A stretch of 64,000 bases of DNA from Gemmatimonadota bacterium (GTDB lineage Bacteria; Gemmatimonadota; Gemmatimonadetes; Gemmatimonadales; GWC2-71-9). Every line of letters begins with the position of its first letter. Position 1 is the stretch's first letter. The stretch spans positions 15,022 to 79,021 of the forward strand of contig QHUT01000054.1 in NCBI GenBank assembly GCA_003222055.1. Reading direction: 5' to 3'. The translations under genes were made by a program, and so were the position numbers. Below are positions 2,963 through 61,564 of the stretch, piece by piece. The notes beneath the pieces were generated by a model that was not told the origin of the DNA, did not search any database, and worked only from the letters and a program-made list of their open reading frames with translations.

Positions 2963-4066
2963 CTACCGCCCTGCCAGCACCTCGCGCACCACCCGCTCCG
3001 GTGCGGTCATCGTCCAGCTGCTGCCGTCGGCGTGCATGCGCCCCACCGCCTCCGGTAGCGCGAACCGCACCGTTCCGGCGCGTGCCTTCTTGTCGAGCTG
3101 CATCGTGGCGAGCAGGGCGTCCGCGGGCGCGCTCTTGGGGAGCTCGACCGGGAGACCGTAGCGCTCCAGCAGCTTGCGAATCCGATCGGCGGTTCCCGCT
3201 GCGGCGATCCCGAGCACCTCGGCGAGCCGCGCTTCGTACGCCATGCCGATCGCCACGGCCGCTCCGTGCAGCACGGCGAACTTGACGGTAGCCTCGACCG
3301 CGTGCGCCACGGTGTGACCGAAGTTGAGGATGGCGCGACGACCGGTCTCACGCTCGTCCGCGGCGACCACGCCCGCCTTGATTTCCACGGAGCGCCGCAC
3401 CAGCTGCTCGAGGGCGTCGGGTTGCCCGGTCGTCACGGCGTCGTGCTCGCGCTCCAGGAATGCGAAGTAGTCGGCGTCGGCGATCGCGGCGTGCTTGACC
3501 GCTTCGGCGACCCCCGCGGCGAGCTGCGGCGCCGGCAGGGTGCCGAGCAGGCCCAGGTCGGCCAGGACGAGCCGGGGTTGGTGAAAGGCACCCAGCAGGT
3601 TCTTGCCGGCGGGGACGTCGACACCCGTCTTGCCGCCGATCGACGAGTCGATCATCGCGAGCAGCGTCGTCGGTACCTGCACGTAGGGAACGCCCCGCAG
3701 GTAGGTGGCCGCGACGAACCCCGCCACGTCGCCCACGACGCCGCCGCCCAGCGCGATGACCCCGCAGTCGCGACCGAACTGACGCTGGAGCAGCCGATCC
3801 GAGAGGGACGCCCACGTTTCCCGCGTCTTGTTCGCTTCCCCTGCGGGAAACTCGAACAACTCCGCGTGCAACGTGGCGTCGTGGCATCGTGCCACGAGCT
3901 TCTTGCCGTACAGCGTCGCGACGTGCGAGTCGGTGATCACGGCGTAGCGGGCCGCGGGGCACGGGGCGTTCACCAAGGCGGGCAGATCCGCCAGCAGGCC
4001 GCGGCCGATCAGGATGTCGTACGAGGTGTTGCGCGGCTCTGCGATCGCGACGCGGATCGTCACCAC
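2963..4066 (-). CDS. aroB: 3-dehydroquinate synthase
   Basis: Contains GGGVVGDVAGFVAATYLRGVPYVQVPTTLLAMIDSSIGGKTGVD. The Arg-rich N-terminus of track ORF 2963..4213 overlaps the upstream gene and looks out of frame. The likely start is GTG 4066 or 4063 (GTGA overlap with the upstream stop). Confidence 0.85.
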   Translation of the reverse strand: MVTIRVAIAEPRNTSYDILIGRGLLADLPALVNAPCPAARYAVITDSHVATLYGKKLVARCHDATLHAELFEFPAGEANKTRETWASLSDRLLQRQFGRDCGVIALGGGVVGDVAGFVAATYLRGVPYVQVPTTLLAMIDSSIGGKTGVDVPAGKNLLGAFHQPRLVLADLGLLGTLPAPQLAAGVAEAVKHAAIADADYFAFLEREHDAVTTGQPDALEQLVRRSVEIKAGVVAADERETGRRAILNFGHTVAHAVEATVKFAVLHGAAVAIGMAYEARLAEVLGIAAAGTADRIRKLLERYGLPVELPKSAPADALLATMQLDKKARAGTVRFALPEAVGRMHADGSSWTMTAPERVVREVLAGR

Positions 4067-30810: not shown

Positions 30811-32060
30811 CAGCGCGTCCGCGCGAAGCGCGCCGCGTATGCACCGTCGATTCCGTCGCGCTGTGGCAGGGACTGCAGGTCGCCGTCCGGAGTGAGCAGG
30901 GCAGCCGGCACCGCGGCCGGCACGGGCGCGCGCCCGAACTCAGGGTGGCAGGCGAGGAACTCGGTCACGATGTCGTCGTTCTCCTCCGGCTCGAGCGAGC
31001 AGGTACTGTAGACGAGCAGTCCTCCCGCACCGACGAGCGTTGCGGCGGCCGCGAGCAGCGCCCGCTGCCGCCGGGCGGCGTGTACGATCGTGCGCGGCGT
31101 GATCCGCCAGCGGGCGTCCGGATGCCGGGCCATGGTGCCGGTAGCGGAGCACGGGGCGTCCACCAACACGGCGGATGCGGTTCCCGGCGCGAGCGGTGCC
31201 GACAGAAGATCGGCGACCGTCACCCGGATCGCCACTCCCGCCCGTCGCGTCGTCTCGGCCAGCCGGCGCATGCGCTCCGGCCGGGCGTCCCCCGCCACGA
31301 CTCGAGCGCCGCCCCGCTCCAGCATCACGGCCTTGCCGCCCGGCGCGGCACAGGCGTCGTACACGAGCGCTCCCGGGGGGATCGCGGCGTAGCGGCAGAC
31401 GAGGGCGTGGGCGGGGTCCTGGACGATAAAGCCGCCTTCCGAATACCCCGGCAACTGCACGGGAAACGGGAAACGGGAAACGTGGTCGAGGCGTGACACC
31501 CGCAGGCCGGCTCCATGGGGCGCTTCTTCTACACCAAACCCGACCTTCCGGAGCTCGAGCGCGAGCACATCGGCGGACCAACGGGCAGGCTGAAGCGTGA
31601 GATTCGGCTTCGTGTCATTCCAGGCGACCAGCCGGGTTGTGTCGGTCGCCCCAAAGAGGCGCCGCCAGCGCTCGACGAGCCACGACGGGTGCGTGTTCTC
31701 GCCCGTTTCCCGTTTCCGGTTTCCCGTTTCCCGAGCGAGCCTTCGCAGCGCCTGGTTCACATACCTCGCTGCCGCGTCGCCCGCCGCTTCCCGCGCCAGC
31801 TCCACGCTGGTGGCGACCGCCGCGTAGGCCGGCACGCGGGCCAATGCGGCCAGCTGGTAGGCGCCAAGACGGAGGACATCGTGCAGGCGCGGGTCGGCGT
31901 GGCGCAGCCGCAGCCGGCGGTCGAGATCCGCTCGCCCCCGCAGCACGCCGGCGGCGAGCTCATAGGCGAGCCGGCGGTCCCGCCCGGCGAGCGTGGGAAG
32001 CACCCGGTCCCGCGCCGCCTGGAACGTGCCGCCGGAGCGCACCGCCTGGAGGATGTGCAA
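30810..32060 (-). CDS. rsmB: 16S rRNA (cytosine967-C5)-methyltransferase
   Basis: HPSWLVERW, FIVQDPAHALV, DACAAPGGK, DAPCSATGT and YSTCSLEPEEN. It contains two in-frame heptamer arrays (see repeats). Confidence 0.9.
   Translation of the reverse strand: MHILQAVRSGGTFQAARDRVLPTLAGRDRRLAYELAAGVLRGRADLDRRLRLRHADPRLHDVLRLGAYQLAALARVPAYAAVATSVELAREAAGDAAARYVNQALRRLARETGNRKRETGENTHPSWLVERWRRLFGATDTTRLVAWNDTKPNLTLQPARWSADVLALELRKVGFGVEEAPHGAGLRVSRLDHVSRFPFPVQLPGYSEGGFIVQDPAHALVCRYAAIPPGALVYDACAAPGGKAVMLERGGARVVAGDARPERMRRLAETTRRAGVAIRVTVADLLSAPLAPGTASAVLVDAPCSATGTMARHPDARWRITPRTIVHAARRQRALLAAAATLVGAGGLLVYSTCSLEPEENDDIVTEFLACHPEFGRAPVPAAVPAALLTPDGDLQSLPQRDGIDGAYAARFARTR
31459..31482. repeat. (GGGAAAC)x3 heptamer array inside rsmB
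   Basis: ACGGGAAACGGGAAACGGGAAACG. It is translated on the minus strand as SRFPFP. Confidence 0.9.
31702..31733. repeat. (CCCGTTT)x4 heptamer array inside rsmB, inverted partner of 31459..31482
   Basis: CCCGTTTCCCGTTTCCGGTTTCCCGTTTCCCG. It is translated on the minus strand as RETGNRKRETG. Confidence 0.9.
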
Positions 32061-33104: not shown

Positions 33105-33733
33105 GACTGCCACTCCTCGAGCATCAGCCGCGCTGCGTCCGCGGGATCGCCTGCATCCCACAGCGCCCGGATCGCGGCGACACCGTAAGCTCCCGCGCCC
33201 CGCACCTCCGCCACCCGCTGGGGCGTCACACCGCCGATCGCGATCACCGGGAGGCCTAGGCCAACAATGGGCCCGAGCCGCGCGAGTCCCAGGGGCTCGC
33301 GGTCGGGATGGGTGGCGGTGCCGTACAGCGGTCCTGCTAAAAGATAGTCAGCTCCGCTGGCGCGCGCGGCTTCCGCCTCGGCCAAGTCGTGCACCGACTT
33401 GCCGATCCACCACCTGGGTTCGAGCCGGCGGGCGTCCTGCGGATCGAGACTCGCCGCTCCGAGCTGAACGCCCGCGGCTCCGACGGCGAGCGCCACGTCG
33501 AGGCGGTCGTTGATAAAGAGTCGGGTAGGCGGATAGACGGCCAGACGGGTAGCGAGTTCGTAGTGCTCTCGTCCCGACAGACCGCGGCCGCGCGCGTGCA
33601 GGGCGAGGCGCTCACCGCCGCCTGCCGCCAGCGCGCGGGCGACATCGTCCATGTCGGGCCTGCGGGCGATGCGCTCATCCGTAATGGCGTGCAGCCGCGG
33701 CAGCGCCCCCCCCTTCTCTCCGGCGCGCGTCAC
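33101..33733 (-). CDS. thiE: Thiamine-phosphate synthase
   Basis: LHAITDE...LHARG...INDRLDVALA...GVQLG...IAIGGV. The start is taken as GTG 33733 (GTGA overlap with the fmt stop). The track ORF starts at 33775. Confidence 0.85.
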   Translation of the reverse strand: MTRAGEKGGALPRLHAITDERIARRPDMDDVARALAAGGGERLALHARGRGLSGREHYELATRLAVYPPTRLFINDRLDVALAVGAAGVQLGAASLDPQDARRLEPRWWIGKSVHDLAEAEAARASGADYLLAGPLYGTATHPDREPLGLARLGPIVGLGLPVIAIGGVTPQRVAEVRGAGAYGVAAIRALWDAGDPADAARLMLEEWQS

Positions 33734-35202: not shown

Positions 35203-35534
35203 TGGGGCTTGGCTTCGATCGACCGGTTGAGGATGTTGGCGATGTTGGTGCGCATCACGACGACGCGCGACTCGCCGCTCTTCACGGTCACTTCGTCGTC
35301 CTTCAGATGCACCACTTCGCCGATGATGCCGCCCGAGGTCACGACTTTGTCGCCGCGCTGCAGCGAGGCGAGCAGCTGGCGGTGGCGCTCCTGCTGCTTG
35401 CGCTGGGGTCGGATGAGCATGACGTAGAAGATCGCGATCAGCGCGGCGATCTGGACCAGGAAAATGGTGAGCCCGCCCGAAGCGTTCTGGCCCGAGGGGG
35501 CGAACAGCAGCGCCAGCATGGGGTGCGCGGTCAT
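35199..35534 (-). CDS. yajC: Preprotein translocase subunit YajC
   Basis: IFLVQIAALIAIFYVMLIRPQRKQQERHRQLLASLQRGDKVVTSGGIIGEV. ATGA overlap with the tgt stop. Confidence 0.88.
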   Translation of the reverse strand: MTAHPMLALLFAPSGQNASGGLTIFLVQIAALIAIFYVMLIRPQRKQQERHRQLLASLQRGDKVVTSGGIIGEVVHLKDDEVTVKSGESRVVVMRTNIANILNRSIEAKPQ

Positions 35535-36727
35535 GCGGATCCCGATCGCAGGTAGCGGCGGCGCCAGGCATCGGCCCACGGGCCGAAGGCGTTCCGCCGG
35601 ATCGCGGCCCGCATGTCCTGCGCGAGCCGGATCAGGTAGCGGACGTTGTGCAGCGACAACAGTCTCAGGCCCAGCAGCTCTTCCGCTACGAACAGGTGCC
35701 GGAGGTACCCCCGCGAGAACGTGGTGCACGCCTCGCAGTCGCACGAGTCGTCGAGCGGCCGCGGGTCCTCGCGGTGCTCGGCGTTGCGAATGTTCACGGG
35801 GCCGTCGGGCGTGAAGGCCGAGCCGTTTCGCCCGTTGCGCGTCGGCGCCACGCAGTCGAACAGATCCAGCCCGCGCTCCACCGCCGCCACCAGGTCCTCG
35901 GGAAACCCCACGCCCATAAGATAACGCGGCAGGGCGGGGGGGAGCCGCGGCTCGAGCGCGTCGAGCATCGCGTACATCGCCGCCTTGGGCTCGCCGACCG
36001 AGAGGCCGCCGATCGCGAGACCGGTCCAGTCGCGCATGTCGCAGATCCGGCGCAGTCCTTCCTCCCGCAGCGCGAGATGGACGCCGCCCTGGAGAATGGG
36101 CCACAAGGTCTGGTTGCACGACGCTACGACGCCACGTTGCAAGGAGTGCCCGGCGTCAGTCGTGGAACGTGGCGTCGTAGCGTCGTGTGACGCTTTCAGT
36201 TCCTCATGCCGCTTCCGGCACCGCTCCAACCATCTCAGCGTTCGCTCGAGGGCGTCCCTGGCCGCGCTCTCGTCCGCGCCCCCGGGGACCACGTGGTCGA
36301 ACGCCATCGCGACGTCGGCGCCCAGGGTCCACTGGATCTCCGTGGCGCGCTCGGGCGTGAGCCGGCGACGGCCGCCGTCCACGTGGCTCTGGAACTCGAC
36401 GCCGTCGTCGTCCACGCGCCGGAAGCCCTCGAGCGAGAATACCTGGAAGCCGCCCGAGTCCGTGAGCAGCGGTCGATCCCAGCCCATGAAGCGGTGCAGC
36501 GCGCCGAGCGTCGCCACCACCTCCTCGCCCGGGCGCACGTGCAGGTGATAGGTGTTCGCGAGCACGAGCGTCGCGCCCGCGGCGCGGAGGTCGTTGGGCG
36601 AAAGCGCCCGCACGGTGCCTTGAGTCCCGACCGGCATGAAGACCGGCGTTTCGACGCTACCGTGCGGGAGGGTGAGGGTGCCGGCGCGGGCGGGGCCGGA
36701 GGTCGCGTCGACCTTGAACTCGAACAC
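35531..36727 (-). CDS. tgt: Queuine tRNA-ribosyltransferase (tRNA-guanine transglycosylase)
   Basis: The start GTG 36727 gives (M)FEFKVDATSGPARAGTL, which aligns with E. coli MKFELDTTDGRARRGRL. Also LTDSGGFQVFSL, GLAIGGLSVGE and CDCEAC. The ~25-aa loop HDATTPRSTTDAGHSLQRGVVAS is encoded by palindrome B1. The track ORF N-terminus (to 36811) runs through repeat A2 and is rejected. Confidence 0.92.
   Translation of the reverse strand: MFEFKVDATSGPARAGTLTLPHGSVETPVFMPVGTQGTVRALSPNDLRAAGATLVLANTYHLHVRPGEEVVATLGALHRFMGWDRPLLTDSGGFQVFSLEGFRRVDDDGVEFQSHVDGGRRRLTPERATEIQWTLGADVAMAFDHVVPGGADESAARDALERTLRWLERCRKRHEELKASHDATTPRSTTDAGHSLQRGVVASCNQTLWPILQGGVHLALREEGLRRICDMRDWTGLAIGGLSVGEPKAAMYAMLDALEPRLPPALPRYLMGVGFPEDLVAAVERGLDLFDCVAPTRNGRNGSAFTPDGPVNIRNAEHREDPRPLDDSCDCEACTTFSRGYLRHLFVAEELLGLRLLSLHNVRYLIRLAQDMRAAIRRNAFGPWADAWRRRYLRSGSA
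36117..36187. repeat. Octamer-array palindromic element, family B (CACGACGC/GCGTCGTG), copy B1, inside tgt
   Basis: Perfect 22-bp inverted repeat: CACGACGCTACGACGCCACGTT (36117..36138) and AACGTGGCGTCGTAGCGTCGTG (36166..36187), with a 27-nt loop. Confidence 0.95.
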
Positions 36728-36734
36728 GGGCGTT

Positions 36735-36812
36735 ATTGCGGATTGCGGATTTCGGATTGCGGATTCGAAAGTCGGGCGTCCAATCCGCAATCCACAATCC
36801 GCAATCCGCAAT
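36735..36812. repeat. Heptamer-array palindromic element, family A, copy A2
   Basis: Left arm ATTGCGGATTGCGGATTTCGGATTGCGGATT (36735..36765). Loop CGAAAGTCGGGCGTCC. Right arm AATCCGCAATCCACAATCCGCAATCCGCAAT (36782..36812). 29 of 31 positions are complementary. It fills the queA-tgt gap. Confidence 0.95.
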
Positions 36813-37864
36813 CAGAGTACCGCCATTGCATCCCCATACGAGTAAAACCGGTATCCCTCCCTTACCGCTTCCCCGTACGCCCGCATGACGTTGTCATAGC
36901 CCCCGAACGCGCACACCAACATTAGCAGGGTCGAGCGCGGCAGGTGGAAGTTCGTGAGCAGCCGGTCGACCGCGCGGAACGAGTACGGGGGGTGAATGAA
37001 GAGCCGGGTCTCGCCGGCGCCCGGAGCGATGCGGCCGCGCTCGCCGGCAAGCGTTTCGAGCGTGCGCACGACCGTGGTCCCGACCGCCCAGACGCGACCT
37101 CCCGCTTCCCGTCGCTCGTTGATGATCCCGGCCGCGCTGTCGCTCACCCGGTACGGCTCGTCGTGCATCGCATGGCGCGCGAGGTCGTCGGTCTCGACCG
37201 GCTTGAAGGTGCCGGGGCCGACGTGCAGGTCCACTTCCGCGAGCGCCACGCCCTTGTCGCGCAGCCGGTCCAACAGGTCGCGCGTGAAATGCAATCCGGC
37301 CGTGGGAGCGGCGACGCTGCCGTCGTGTGCCGCGTACACCGTCTGGTAGCGCTCGCGATCCTCGGGGCGCGGCGCGCGGCGGATGTAGGGCGGCAGTGGC
37401 ACCTCGCCGTACTTGGCGAGCGTGGCCGGGGCGTCGAGCGCGCCGACGAACCGCACCCGGCGGAGGCCGCCTCCCAACGCCTCGACGATCTCCGCGGTGC
37501 TGTCGGGGCCGAACGTCACGCGGCGTCCCGACTTGAGCTTGCCTCCGGGATGCCCCATGGCGAGCCAGGTCCCATCGGGTAGCTCCCGGACGAGCAAGAG
37601 TTCGGCCTTGCCGCCGGACCCGCCCATCCCGCTTCCCGCAAGCCGCATCCCGTGCAGTCTCGCCGGAATCACGCGTGACACGTTGACGACGAGCACGTCC
37701 TCCGGCGCCACCAGATCGACGACGTCGACGAACCGCCCGTGGCGGATCGCCCCGCTGGCGCGATCGAGCACCAGGAGGCGACTCCCGCCCCGATCGGGGA
37801 GCGGGTCTTGGGCGATCTGCTCGGCTGGCAGACTGTAGTCGAAGTCTGAAGTTCGGTAGAGCAC
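36812..37864 (-). CDS. queA: S-adenosylmethionine:tRNA ribosyltransferase-isomerase
   Basis: The start GTG 37864 gives (M)LYRTSDFDYSLPAEQIAQDPL, which aligns with E. coli MRVTDFSFELPESLIAHYP. Also TRVIPARL-like VSRVIPARL, AAPTAGLHFT and FRFYSYGDAM. The track ORF N-terminus runs through repeat A3. Confidence 0.92.
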   Translation of the reverse strand: MLYRTSDFDYSLPAEQIAQDPLPDRGGSRLLVLDRASGAIRHGRFVDVVDLVAPEDVLVVNVSRVIPARLHGMRLAGSGMGGSGGKAELLLVRELPDGTWLAMGHPGGKLKSGRRVTFGPDSTAEIVEALGGGLRRVRFVGALDAPATLAKYGEVPLPPYIRRAPRPEDRERYQTVYAAHDGSVAAPTAGLHFTRDLLDRLRDKGVALAEVDLHVGPGTFKPVETDDLARHAMHDEPYRVSDSAAGIINERREAGGRVWAVGTTVVRTLETLAGERGRIAPGAGETRLFIHPPYSFRAVDRLLTNFHLPRSTLLMLVCAFGGYDNVMRAYGEAVREGYRFYSYGDAMAVL

Positions 37865-37870
37865 GCCGAG

Positions 37871-37952
37871 AATTGCGGATGGCGGATTTCGGATTGCGGA
37901 TTCGAAGGTCGTGGGTCCAATCCGCAATCCGCACTCCACAATCCGCAATCCG
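37871..37952. repeat. Heptamer-array palindromic element, family A, copy A3
   Basis: AATTGCGGATGGCGGATTTCGGATTGCGGATT, loop CGAAGGTCGTGGGTCC, then AATCCGCAATCCGCACTCCACAATCCGCAATCCG. It fills the ruvB-queA gap. Confidence 0.95.
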
Positions 37953-37954
37953 TG

Positions 37955-38995
37955 TTAGCCGTCAAACATCGTCGGCTGGTCCGCGCTTCGGGGCGGCGTG
38001 AAGCCGAAATGCTTGTACGCGCCTGCCGTGGCGCAGCGGCCGCGCGGCGTGCGCGCCAGGAACCCCTGCTGCATCAGGAACGGCTCGTACACTTCTTCGA
38101 GCGTGCCGGCGTCCTCCCCCACGGCGGCGGCGATGGTGGTGAGTCCCACCGGGCCCCCGTCGAACTGCTCGATGATCGTCTTGAGGATACGCCCGTCCAT
38201 GTCGTCGAGACCGAACTCGTCTACGTCCAGGCGTTGGAGGGCCTCCCCCGCTACCTGCGCCGTGATCTTGCCGCCGGCGCGCACCTGGGCGTAGTCGCGG
38301 ACCCGCTTCAGCAGCCGGTTCGCGACGCGGGGCGTCCCGCGACTGCGGCGGGCGATTTCGGCGATGCCTGCGACGTCCGCGGGGACGCCCAGGATCCCGG
38401 CCGAGCGGCTGATGATCTGCGCCAGGTCGTCCGGCGGATAGTAGGAGAGGCGCTCTACCAGCCCGAAGCGCGCGCGCATCGGCGGCGTCAGCAGGCCGAA
38501 TCGGGTGGTCGCCCCGATCAGCGTGAACCGCTCGAGCGCCATCGGAATGGTCTGCGCGTGCGGACCCTCGGCGACGCGGACGTCGACCCGGTAGTCCTCC
38601 ATCGCGGGGTAGAGGAATTCCTCGAGCGCCGGGCGCAGGCGGTGCACTTCGTCGATGAACAGGATGTCGTTCGCCTGGAGCGACGTGAGCAGGCCCACCA
38701 GGTCTCCCGGCCGCTCGAGCACCGGGCCCGAGGTCGTGCGGACGCTCACGCCCAGCTCCTTCGCCATGAGCAGCGCGAGGGTCGTTTTGCCGAGTCCCGG
38801 GGGCCCGAAGAACAGCGTGTGGTCGAGGGGCTCCCGCCGCTGCTTCGCTGCGTCGATGGCGATTTGGAGCGACTCCTTCACCTTCGCCTGGCCGACGAAC
38901 TCGTCCAGCCCCGACGGCCGCAGCGCGGCGTCGGTGAGCCGCTCGTCGGGCAGGGCGTCCGGCGTGGTGACCTGGGTCCGCGCGCGCGTGCTCAC
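37955..38995 (-). CDS. ruvB: Holliday junction branch migration helicase RuvB
   Basis: [19 protein letters not shown]...[14 protein letters not shown]...IDEVHRL. The start GTG 38995 forms a GTGA overlap with the small ORF stop. The Arg-rich extension to 39154 is judged off-frame. Confidence 0.92.
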
Positions 38996-41930: not shown

Positions 41931-41943
41931 GACGGCCCCTCCT

Positions 41944-41989
41944 GTGCGTCTGTGCGTCTGTGCGTCTAGCCTACTATAGATGTAGACGC
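41944..41989. repeat. (GTGCGTCT)x3 octamer array ending in a 7-bp hairpin
   Basis: GTGCGTCTGTGCGTCTGTGCGTCT at 41944..41967. GCGTCTA (41962..41968) pairs with TAGACGC (41983..41989). The GCGTCT core is the same as in element 1675..1790. Confidence 0.85.
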
Positions 41990-57252: not shown

Positions 57253-57259
57253 AGCGTTA

Positions 57260-57330
57260 CACGACGCCACGACGCCACGACGCCACGTTGCGAGAGCCTC
57301 TTTCGTGGAACGTGGCGTCCTGCCGTCATG
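57260..57330. repeat. Octamer-array palindromic element, family B, copy B2 (between convergent genes)
   Basis: (CACGACGC)x3 + CACGTT at 57260..57289, with partner AACGTGGCGTCCTGCCGTCATG at 57309..57330 (19 of 22 complementary). The loop starts GCGAG and ends TCGTGG, like B1. Confidence 0.9.
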
Positions 57331-57982
57331 CAACGCTCTCTCGGTGCTTATCCCCCCACCACGCCCACGCCACAAACAGCCACCCGAAGATGATACCGCC
57401 GATGGCGAGCGCGACGCGCGTCGTCGGCGGTGGCGGACTGAACAGCGAGCCGACGTACGACAGCAGCAGCACCGCGACGAGCGCCCAGAATCCGTAGCTC
57501 CCCGCGCGGTCGCGGGCTCGCGTGGCGGTGGCGTAGAGCCAGACGCCCGCGACGAACATCACTCCCTCGACGACCACCGTGCCGGCGACGGAGTTCCAGA
57601 GACCGAGCCCCAGCGGCGTGCCGCCCGGGTACAGCGGCATGTCGGGGCGATGGGTGACGTAGTCGAGCACCCAGTGGCTCACGACGAGGAGCGCGATCAC
57701 GACCCCTCCGCGGTCGTCCAGCGTGCGCGCGCGGTACACCAACCCGAACAGCGCGCCCCATCCGATCAGGGTGACGAGGCTGTGCGAGATCGGGATCGAG
57801 TCGAGCCACAGCGTCAGGAACGGATTCGGCCCCGGCACGACGTGGGCCTGCTCCCAGCCGAGCAGCAGGAACACCGGCCACAGCAGATCGGCGAGCGACG
57901 TGGCGGCGAACAGCGTGCCCAGCGAGGCTCGCGGCGCGGCACGCTTCGCGGCCAGGGCGACGGCGTAGTGGCCGATGAACAT
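57326..57982 (-). CDS. Integral membrane protein (putative membrane-bound metal-dependent hydrolase-like)
   Basis: MFIGHYAVALAAK... with about six hydrophobic segments and conserved His residues. The family is uncertain. The last codons lie in repeat B2. Confidence 0.5.
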   Translation of the reverse strand: MFIGHYAVALAAKRAAPRASLGTLFAATSLADLLWPVFLLLGWEQAHVVPGPNPFLTLWLDSIPISHSLVTLIGWGALFGLVYRARTLDDRGGVVIALLVVSHWVLDYVTHRPDMPLYPGGTPLGLGLWNSVAGTVVVEGVMFVAGVWLYATATRARDRAGSYGFWALVAVLLLSYVGSLFSPPPPTTRVALAIGGIIFGWLFVAWAWWGDKHRESVA

Positions 57983-61477: not shown

Positions 61478-61564
61478 GAGGGGCTAGGGGTCGGGGGCTA
61501 GGGGCTGGGGACTGCGCTGCCATCCCGAATCCCTGACCCCTGACCCCTGATCCCTGACCCCTGA
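61478..61564. repeat. G-tract / C-tract heptamer palindrome (GGGGCTA-type arm against CCCTGAC-type arm)
   Basis: GGGGCTAGGGGTCGGGGGCTAGGGGCTGGGG at 61480..61510 and CCCTGACCCCTGACCCCTGATCCCTGACCCCTGA at 61531..61564. The right arm ends at the ATG of the amidohydrolase gene. Confidence 0.9.

Follow-up and report, generated by a model that had tools for sequence, protein, structure and literature searches.

How does a conserved tRNA-modification enzyme come to carry a perfect DNA palindrome inside its reading frame, and what keeps the palindrome there? The question is raised by the tgt gene in a 64,000-nt stretch of contig QHUT01000054.1 from a Gemmatimonadota bacterium (the whole stretch is referred to here as the window), in which a sequence-only reading had noted an in-frame inverted repeat and had taken it for a recently inserted mobile element in the style of the Rickettsia palindromic elements (RPEs). 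Comparison of the window with related loci leads us to a different history. We consider it probable, though well short of certain, that the palindrome is a hairpin cassette of a kind similar to RPEs and to repetitive extragenic palindromic (REP) sequences, resident in a permissive loop of the Tgt protein, and that it is an old element with many alleles, under constraint as a hairpin and exchanged between lineages by recombination.

The palindrome occupies 71 bp (36117-36187) within tgt. Sequence inspection and repeat finding bear out the reported structure, i.e., perfect 22-bp arms at 36117-36138 and 36166-36187, separated by a 27-nt spacer (36139-36165); with one mismatch allowed, the arms lengthen to 25 nt (36117-36141 and 36163-36187). 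The left arm reads CACGACGCTACGACGCCACGTT and the right arm is its exact reverse complement. The arms are made up of the octamer CACGACGC, in the order CACGACGC-TACGACGC-CACGTT, and form a direct tandem array without internal self-complementarity. At up to three mismatches, the 22-mer has five matches in the window (the two tgt arms, two overlapping matches at 57260-57289 in an intergenic copy, B2, and one arm at 3870-3891) and none in 100 shuffles that preserve dinucleotides. Folding energies of the 111-nt segment are -52.3 kcal/mol for RNA (z = -4.65) and -35.0 kcal/mol for DNA (z = -5.9), and in both cases no shuffle is as good. No Rfam family matches anywhere in the window at gathering thresholds, and a permissive run on 35900-38100 gave only generic microRNA-precursor hairpin matches far below threshold. 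The orientation of G-rich and C-rich arms was considered as evidence and set aside, since a palindrome reads alike both ways and its orientation is uninformative.

The host gene is intact. The tgt coding sequence (35531-36727, minus strand) encodes 398 aa from a GTG start, in agreement with a 398-aa database protein of the same species, and its product covers positions 3-355 of the 357 in the Pfam profile PF01702 (E = 1.8e-140). In the alignment of relatives, two motifs are invariant, TDSGGFQ and the zinc motif CxCxxC...H (CDCEAC...H). Compared with an empty allele, the in-frame surplus is 69 nt (36119-36187, minus strand) and codes for the 23 residues HDATTPRSTTDAGHSLQRGVVAS, between helix 155-186 and the LWPILQGG strand. 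The surplus loop had been equated with the palindrome, and its arms had been read as HDATTPR and RGVVAS; both statements hold, the minus-strand codons being CAC GAC GCT ACG ACG CCA CGT ... CGT GGC GTC GTA GCG TCG. The match to the structure of Z. mobilis Tgt (E = 4e-114) is split solely at the insert, where query residues 181-206 stand opposite chain residues 191-194, leaving ~22 extra residues. In this alignment, the insert follows a long helix and precedes the N-terminal end of the LWPILQGG strand, the glutamine of which aligns with an active-site residue of the Z. mobilis enzyme. Since the insert comes ahead of the strand's N-terminal end, this alignment and TIM-barrel topology would place it on the barrel face opposite the active site, and the 23-residue peptide presumably has no catalytic role. 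An AlphaFold2 model built on a 61-sequence alignment is poor, with a predicted local distance difference test (pLDDT) score of 46.8, and was used only for the order of elements (helix 155-186, coil 187-208, strand 209-211).

What sets this position apart is the range of alleles that it carries in relatives. Taking the site as the segment from WLERCxxRH to LWPILQGG, we extracted it in 157 of 160 fetched Gemmatimonadota loci (denoted by L-numbers; L161 is a conspecific of the window) and obtained 140 distinct DNA alleles. A long hairpin (arms of at least 16 nt, ranging over 16-35 nt) is present in 46 of these, and the best internal arm period is 8 nt in every one of the 46. The units fall into about nine families, namely CACGACGC/TACGACGC (class A, to which the window belongs), GGACGGGC (class B), GTCGGACA, GACGGAAG, GGAAAGAT, GGAAGGTT, GGTTAGGC, CACGTCGG and GGTCAGGC. 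A single codon position of tgt is thus a multi-allelic hot spot with some nine hairpin families in one clade, a point absent from the sequence-only reading. The reading frame is kept at the site in all 157 loci, and mismatches affect ~10% of arm positions across all hairpin alleles.

The alignment of relatives includes filled, empty and one-arm states. The empty allele L162 lacks exactly 69 nt and keeps one GCGTCG (ACG GCG TCG/TGC AAC, i.e., AELTAS/CNQT), the empty class-B allele RELADGRQT consists of the mini-hairpin CTGGCG-GACGGG-CGCCAG, and one-arm remnants read AVVASCDQT, VPRSVGASCNQT and YVQRSVLASCNQT. Empty and expanded alleles may be close relatives, as are L147 (empty) and L157 (expanded). 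In distant Gemmatimonadota (~60-73% Tgt identity), the loop is uniformly 12 residues long and free of hairpins, e.g., AQLSREDPDRQT, and a second, distant clade (L070-L075) carries hairpins at the same position, including one with a perfect 27-nt arm, (GAAGGACG)n. [quoted passage not shown] Direct rather than inverted repeats also occur at the site. L057, with a 27-aa loop, has (AGAGGCC)n followed by (GAGTCAC)n, and L012, with a 39-aa loop, has a duplicated CCATCCGACGCCTCA, so that the loop evidently accepts simple-repeat expansions of other kinds.

These alleles bear first on an account in which selection acted on the peptide and gave rise to the palindrome as a side effect, a coincidence of coding. 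That the palindrome is translated speaks for such an account, and nothing else does. It is contradicted by the hairpin families themselves, in which a DNA hairpin with an 8-nt period is kept although the peptides differ wholly; since 8 is not a multiple of 3, the period cannot be that of a protein repeat. Arms and loop lack a codon-position pattern, the same DNA family occurs in non-coding DNA, and the loop DNA of relatives is itself palindromic, with compensatory changes, rather than a non-palindromic sequence coding for a loop of the same length. We give coding coincidence next to no credence.

The second question is one of age. The perfect stem had been read as a sign of recency, i.e., an RPE-like insertion in this lineage with a stem that has had no time to decay, and besides the 22-bp stem the existence of an empty allele and the related copy B2 argue in this direction. 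The relatives contradict it. Class A, whose members share the 69-nt insert, its codon position and its centre of symmetry, comprises 17 distinct alleles in an ungapped alignment, in which flanking third codon positions are ~0.65 identical (i.e., ~35% divergence) and most alleles have 2-4 stem mismatches. The nearest relatives, L081 and L001, carry the element with two stem mismatches; the T..A pair of the window is C..G in them, a double change that is both compensated and synonymous. A hitch-hiking test for recent spread of class A was negative, in that flanking third-position identity shows no rise near the site. Because one and the same insert is found in 17 alleles with flanks this divergent, the element is old, and the perfect stem of the window is one state of a maintained element. 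Recent insertion is accordingly very unlikely, and the case cautions against using a perfect stem, an unreliable sign, to date an insertion.

What has been maintained over this time is a nucleic-acid hairpin, not a peptide. In class A, identity is 0.79 in one arm and 0.85 in the other, irrespective of codon position, and 0.52 in the 27-nt spacer, likewise with no codon-position pattern. Change in the arms is thus slower than at synonymous sites nearby, and the loop drifts freely. Symmetric partners are paired in 78.8% of cells, compared with 17-48% when the partner is slid by 1-3 columns. Column pairs 27-81, 35-73 and 42-66 switch from C-G to U-A with zero or one unpaired intermediate each, and double-change cells number 28, compared with 16.7 in shuffles, none of 500 shuffles reaching 28.

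Constraint of this kind might be expected if the hairpin were a cis element in tgt mRNA or DNA selected by the host, the peptide being incidental. Possible roles include a translational pause between the barrel halves, a site of mRNA stability or processing, and a DNA structure bound by a host protein. Arms conserved above the synonymous rate, compensatory pairs and a free loop are what such an element predicts; the hairpin is very stable, a strong hairpin stands at the same place in different lineages despite entirely different sequence, and a role as RNA elements has been proposed for REP-type hairpins (PMC3733652). However, G.U mismatches in the stems, read in the mRNA sense, are not in excess over A.C (15 vs 19), so that this signature of the RNA strand is missing and nothing points to RNA over DNA. 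About two thirds of the distinct alleles, including empty or one-arm alleles in close relatives, have no long hairpin, deep relatives never had one, and no Rfam family matches. For these reasons we regard a host-selected cis element as unlikely.

How, then, do unrelated hairpins come to stand at the same codon? On a neighbour-joining tree of Tgt built without the insert site, the hairpin families are interleaved. L094 (class A) and L123 (class B) carry unrelated hairpins although 1500 nt on the upstream side and 836 nt on the downstream side are near-identical; the exceptions cluster next to the site, with 10 differences in the 34 nt before it and two in the 3 nt after it. The pairs L115/L108 and L117/L009 show similar local patches around the site, and in such near-identical strains the difference is limited to a patch of ~40-140 nt. 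A patch of the same nature is seen away from the site, within tgt at 35531-36100, in the conspecific L161. This contig matches the window exactly in the insert and for ~1150 nt on the upstream side, shows 29 differences in ~320 nt located 210-532 nt downstream, and is then identical again. Together, the L161 patch and the patches at the site show that short-patch homologous recombination is common in these populations, and it offers the simplest explanation for the swapping of old alleles.

The family to which the tgt element belongs extends beyond tgt. The related intergenic copy reported previously, B2, is real. It lies at 57253-57337, between an aminotransferase-V gene and a YdjM-like gene, and takes up the whole interval from one of their convergent stop codons to the other. 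The arm of B2 is (CACGACGC)x3-CACGTT; besides the arm units, B2 and the tgt copy have in common the non-palindromic apical motifs CACGTTGC.AG and TCGTGGAACGTGGCGTC. A single arm of the family (CACGATGCCACGACGCCACGTT, two mismatches; 3870-3891, minus strand) lies in frame in aroB (3-dehydroquinate synthase), where it codes for ..ARCHDATLHA.. with no obvious change in protein length, bringing the window total to 2.5 copies against an expectation of 0. Homologous hairpins with the same apical sequence occupy the orthologous intergenic site in L086, L125, L127 and L128, and related copies are also found in L129 and L154. In L022, the tgt allele is of the (GTCGGACA) family, and so is an intergenic array at a distance of 5 kb. 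A (GTCGGACN)x3 array of L022 that matches the family of its tgt allele stands after the stop codon of a DnaB-like helicase gene (L022:5270-5295). The element is therefore present in several copies, including non-coding sites, and as an in-frame insert that is absent from orthologues and leaves the open reading frame (ORF) intact. As a description, the RPE-style in-frame palindromic insertion proposed earlier is fair with regard to the dispersed family, the intergenic copies and the empty allele L162, but not with regard to recent arrival.

Hairpins of similar build lie upstream of tgt in the local order ruvB-queA-tgt-yajC-def-fmt-thiE-like-thiS; uncultured Gemmatimonadales from soil are the source of all the nearest Tgt proteins and loci. 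Two 78-nt heptamer hairpins (31-nt arms, 16-nt loop, unit ATTGCGG) fill the queA-tgt spacer (36735-36812) and the ruvB-queA spacer (37872-37949), the former beginning within the queA stop codon TGA and ending 7 nt before the GTG start of tgt. In relatives, the hairpins in these spacers have the unit AATGCGG, AACGCGG or AGTGCGG, altered in every unit and in both arms, so that the units of different lineages differ by single-nucleotide steps. In some close strains, an unrelated CCCCGGGC...GCCCGGGG hairpin takes the place of the heptamer hairpin in the queA-tgt or ruvB-queA spacer.

Such stepwise change raises the alternative that the hairpins are not mobile and have grown in place. A seed in the loop codons, either CTG..CAG of Leu/Gln codons or a mini-hairpin such as CTGGCG-GACGGG-CGCCAG, would be amplified by 8-nt slippage and mirrored by intrastrand template switching, and the families would diversify by concerted evolution. 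Because the empty alleles already hold 1-1.5 units in phase, growth in place has a ready starting point: the empty class-A allele contains one unit, GCGTCGTG, and the empty class-B allele is a mini-hairpin with a 6-bp stem, the arms of which equal the outermost arms of (GGACGGGC)n palindromes, 1.5 units in phase. The uniform period of 8 in all hairpin alleles, the closeness of empty L147 to expanded L157, the presence of same-site hairpins in two separate clades, and the shift of the spacer heptamers by single nucleotides in all units and both arms fit the same scheme, and quasipalindrome template-switch mutagenesis is an established mechanism (PMC7202029). Growth in place does not, however, account for the apical non-palindromic sequence that the tgt element has in common with unlinked intergenic copies, in other genomes too; its presence at unlinked loci requires copying between them. 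The same unit families also occur at unrelated sites (the thiE-like gene, aroB, queA and intergenic DNA), and near-identical strains carry unrelated families, which gradual drift cannot produce and recombination of old alleles can. Moreover, a slippage step of 8 nt breaks the frame, so that the intermediates would inactivate tgt. On balance, growth in place seems to us rather unlikely. Phase variation by octamer slippage was considered as well and found no support, given 2-4 units per arm and frames that are intact everywhere.

We therefore prefer an old hairpin cassette that is resident in the Tgt loop. Starting from the observed anatomy, family membership, allele spectrum, patch-wise replacement and nucleotide-level constraint, a plausible course of events is as follows. 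The cassette would first have arrived by copying from another genomic copy into a GCGTCG microhomology site, through single-strand hairpin transposition or template switching; copying from other loci is suggested by the shared apical sequence and by families common to several loci. Once resident, the copy would be translated as a 23-residue passenger peptide in the helix-to-strand loop, and its alleles would pass between lineages via short-patch homologous recombination. The stems might be kept near-perfect by selection on the hairpin, by self-templated (quasipalindrome) correction, or by both. Unbiased self-templated correction would not slow substitution, so that arms which change this slowly point either to selection on the hairpin or to some bias.

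Several further points weigh against this preference. A crude motif scan for HUH/Y1 transposases (HUH...Y..NP) in the window and ~2 Mb of related loci, a weak test, gave no hits; no mobilising gene of another kind came to light, and an insertion was never observed while under way. The 1-1.5 in-phase octamer units of the empty alleles, GCGTCGTG in class A and GGCGGACGGGCG within the CTGGCG..CGCCAG mini-hairpin of class B, fit growth in place equally well. The hairpin has been lost in many lineages, with some two thirds of distinct alleles lacking a long one, so that any host function must be dispensable. The covariation stems from few independent events in related sequences, and pairing in the shuffles already reaches 76.9%. 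Finally, the poor AlphaFold model leaves surface exposure of the insert to TIM-barrel topology and the Z. mobilis Tgt alignment.

Hairpins with tandem-unit arms are numerous in these genomes. The window holds about seven of them together with several one-arm arrays, its tandem arrays of period 7 and period 8 number 4 and 2 (0.2 and 0.0 in shuffles), and 193 hairpins were found in 2 Mb of related loci. As a tentative extension, to which we attach only a low probability, the tgt loop could be one of several fixed docking sites for an octamer/heptamer-arm hairpin superfamily in Gemmatimonadales, the others being the queA-tgt and ruvB-queA spacers and codons in the thiE-like gene, aroB and queA; in the same proposal, hairpins would time and again be installed, exchanged and collapsed at these sites by structure-guided copying without a dedicated transposase of the RAYT (REP-associated tyrosine transposase) type, their arms being under nucleotide-level selection. 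If this were true, the hairpins would represent a previously undescribed self-maintaining hairpin replicator or a DNA/RNA structural element used by the host, and not passive debris.

Comparison with known systems shows where the tgt element is familiar and where it is not. RPEs, in the work of Ogata et al. in 2000, reportedly lie in frame within conserved genes. To our knowledge, they are confined to Rickettsia, and they are longer than the tgt hairpin and probably without relation to it in sequence. Like RPEs and intragenic REPs, the tgt element is a dispersed short palindrome that lies in frame, adds 20-30 residues and leaves the protein intact; it is set apart from RPEs by its host, Gemmatimonadales, and by its architecture of tandem-octamer arms, and we do not claim membership. 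Intragenic REP dimers code for 20-30 aa and leave the protein intact (Di Nocera et al. 2013, PMC3733652), the tRNA-modification genes truB and truA are among the targets of intragenic repeats, and different REPs occupy approximately the same recB site in two Xanthomonas species (PMC3733652). The GTAG/CGTC REPs of that survey are 20-40-bp units with a stem of 5-13 bp, a loop of 2-20 and an unpaired GTAG or CGTC tag, larger hairpins being head-to-head dimers (PMC3733652). The tgt element falls outside this structural definition, since the arms at this site are tandem octamer arrays of 16-35 nt rather than stem-loop units, with a 22-bp stem and a 27-nt spacer in the window. It resembles GTAG/CGTC REPs in the location of its class near ORF 3' ends, e.g., B2 between convergent stops and the 36735-36812 hairpin at the queA stop. 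The survey contains nothing on the scale of one codon with about nine families and 46 hairpin alleles.

The closest architectural parallels are the Xanthomonas GGGAATC repeats and the cyanobacterial short tandemly repeated repetitive (STRR) sequences, dispersed tandem arrays of 7-nt units that often form convergent pairs able to fold into a stem-loop (Rehm et al. 2015, PMC4692102). These arrays lie mostly within 50 bp of ORF ends, some being intragenic, and the repeats are G-rich and have been studied as G-quadruplex formers (PMC4692102). The period-7 hairpins upstream of tgt and queA (GCGGATT/GCGGAAT units; 36735-36812 and 37872-37949) are similar, whereas the tgt element has a period of 8 (CACGACGC) and no G-tracts, and an in-frame palindromic pair in a conserved enzyme with allelic turnover at one site is not described in that work. 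REPINs are hairpin-forming inverted doublets of a short repeat that are mobilised by RAYT transposases (Bertels and Rainey 2011, PMC3116915). Inverted hairpin doublets in many copies that persist at fixed loci are a feature of the tgt class as well, but it has no GTAG tag, its arms are tandem arrays and not REP units, and the weak motif scan of the window and ~2 Mb of loci found no RAYT/IS200-like gene. Quasipalindrome template switching, in which an imperfect inverted repeat is perfected by copying one arm from the other (Lovett laboratory, PMC7202029), could account for the near-perfect stems and the paired changes of the tgt element; it is, however, a mutational process and not an element, and leaves the dispersal and the conservation of the arms above the neutral rate unexplained.

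A literature search returned no description of palindromic repeats with tandem-unit arms in Gemmatimonadota, a phylum that the PMC3733652 survey omits, and the present analysis documents such a repeat class there. Intragenic palindromic repeats are on record for Rickettsia and a few other bacteria, and the tgt locus bears on how such repeats arrive and persist. It amounts to a natural experiment, with dozens of hairpin alleles, empty and half-deleted states and strain-level replacements at one codon, all in public soil metagenomes. Population data of this kind make the gain, loss, homogenisation and recombination of repeats testable, along with selection on the hairpin and the tolerance of a TIM-barrel loop to insertions.

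Further repeats of this type were observed in the window and in relatives. The thiE-like gene provides a second in-frame site (33518-33550, minus strand; L084:13190-13230 and equivalents), where a one-arm octamer array that varies by lineage occupies the bracketed codons of ..LEHYELA[xxxxxxxxxx]LFVNDR.. in a TMP-TENI protein of constant length; one lineage has (GTCCGCCT)n, read as VRLSACPPAR, others have NGLTAYPPSR or FQLSNLPSPL, and the window has a degenerate TRLAVYPPTR. In L075 (560-600), (GGACGGGC)x4 lies in frame in queA (..LLLVRRADGRTGGRAEEAF..), with ~5 residues more than the QueA of the window has there. An octamer CAGACGCC hairpin lies in the gap between two minus-strand ORFs at 1675-1790 and can be drawn with 31-nt arms (four mismatches, 54-nt spacer) or with 55-nt arms at 76%. 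Other tandem-unit-arm hairpins of the window are located at 61480-61561 (GGGGCTA/CCCTGAC units) and 179-249 (GGATTGC units), and perfect one-arm arrays at 41942-41967, (CTGTGCGT)x3 shortly before the same DnaB-like helicase gene that the L022 array follows, and at 31459-31482, (ACGGGAA)x3. In L027 (3105-3175), a hairpin with (CGCCCGGA)n arms (29 nt, three mismatches) lies within a 917-codon open frame with coding-like GC content at third codon positions; this could be a further in-frame example, unless the true start is located downstream of the hairpin.

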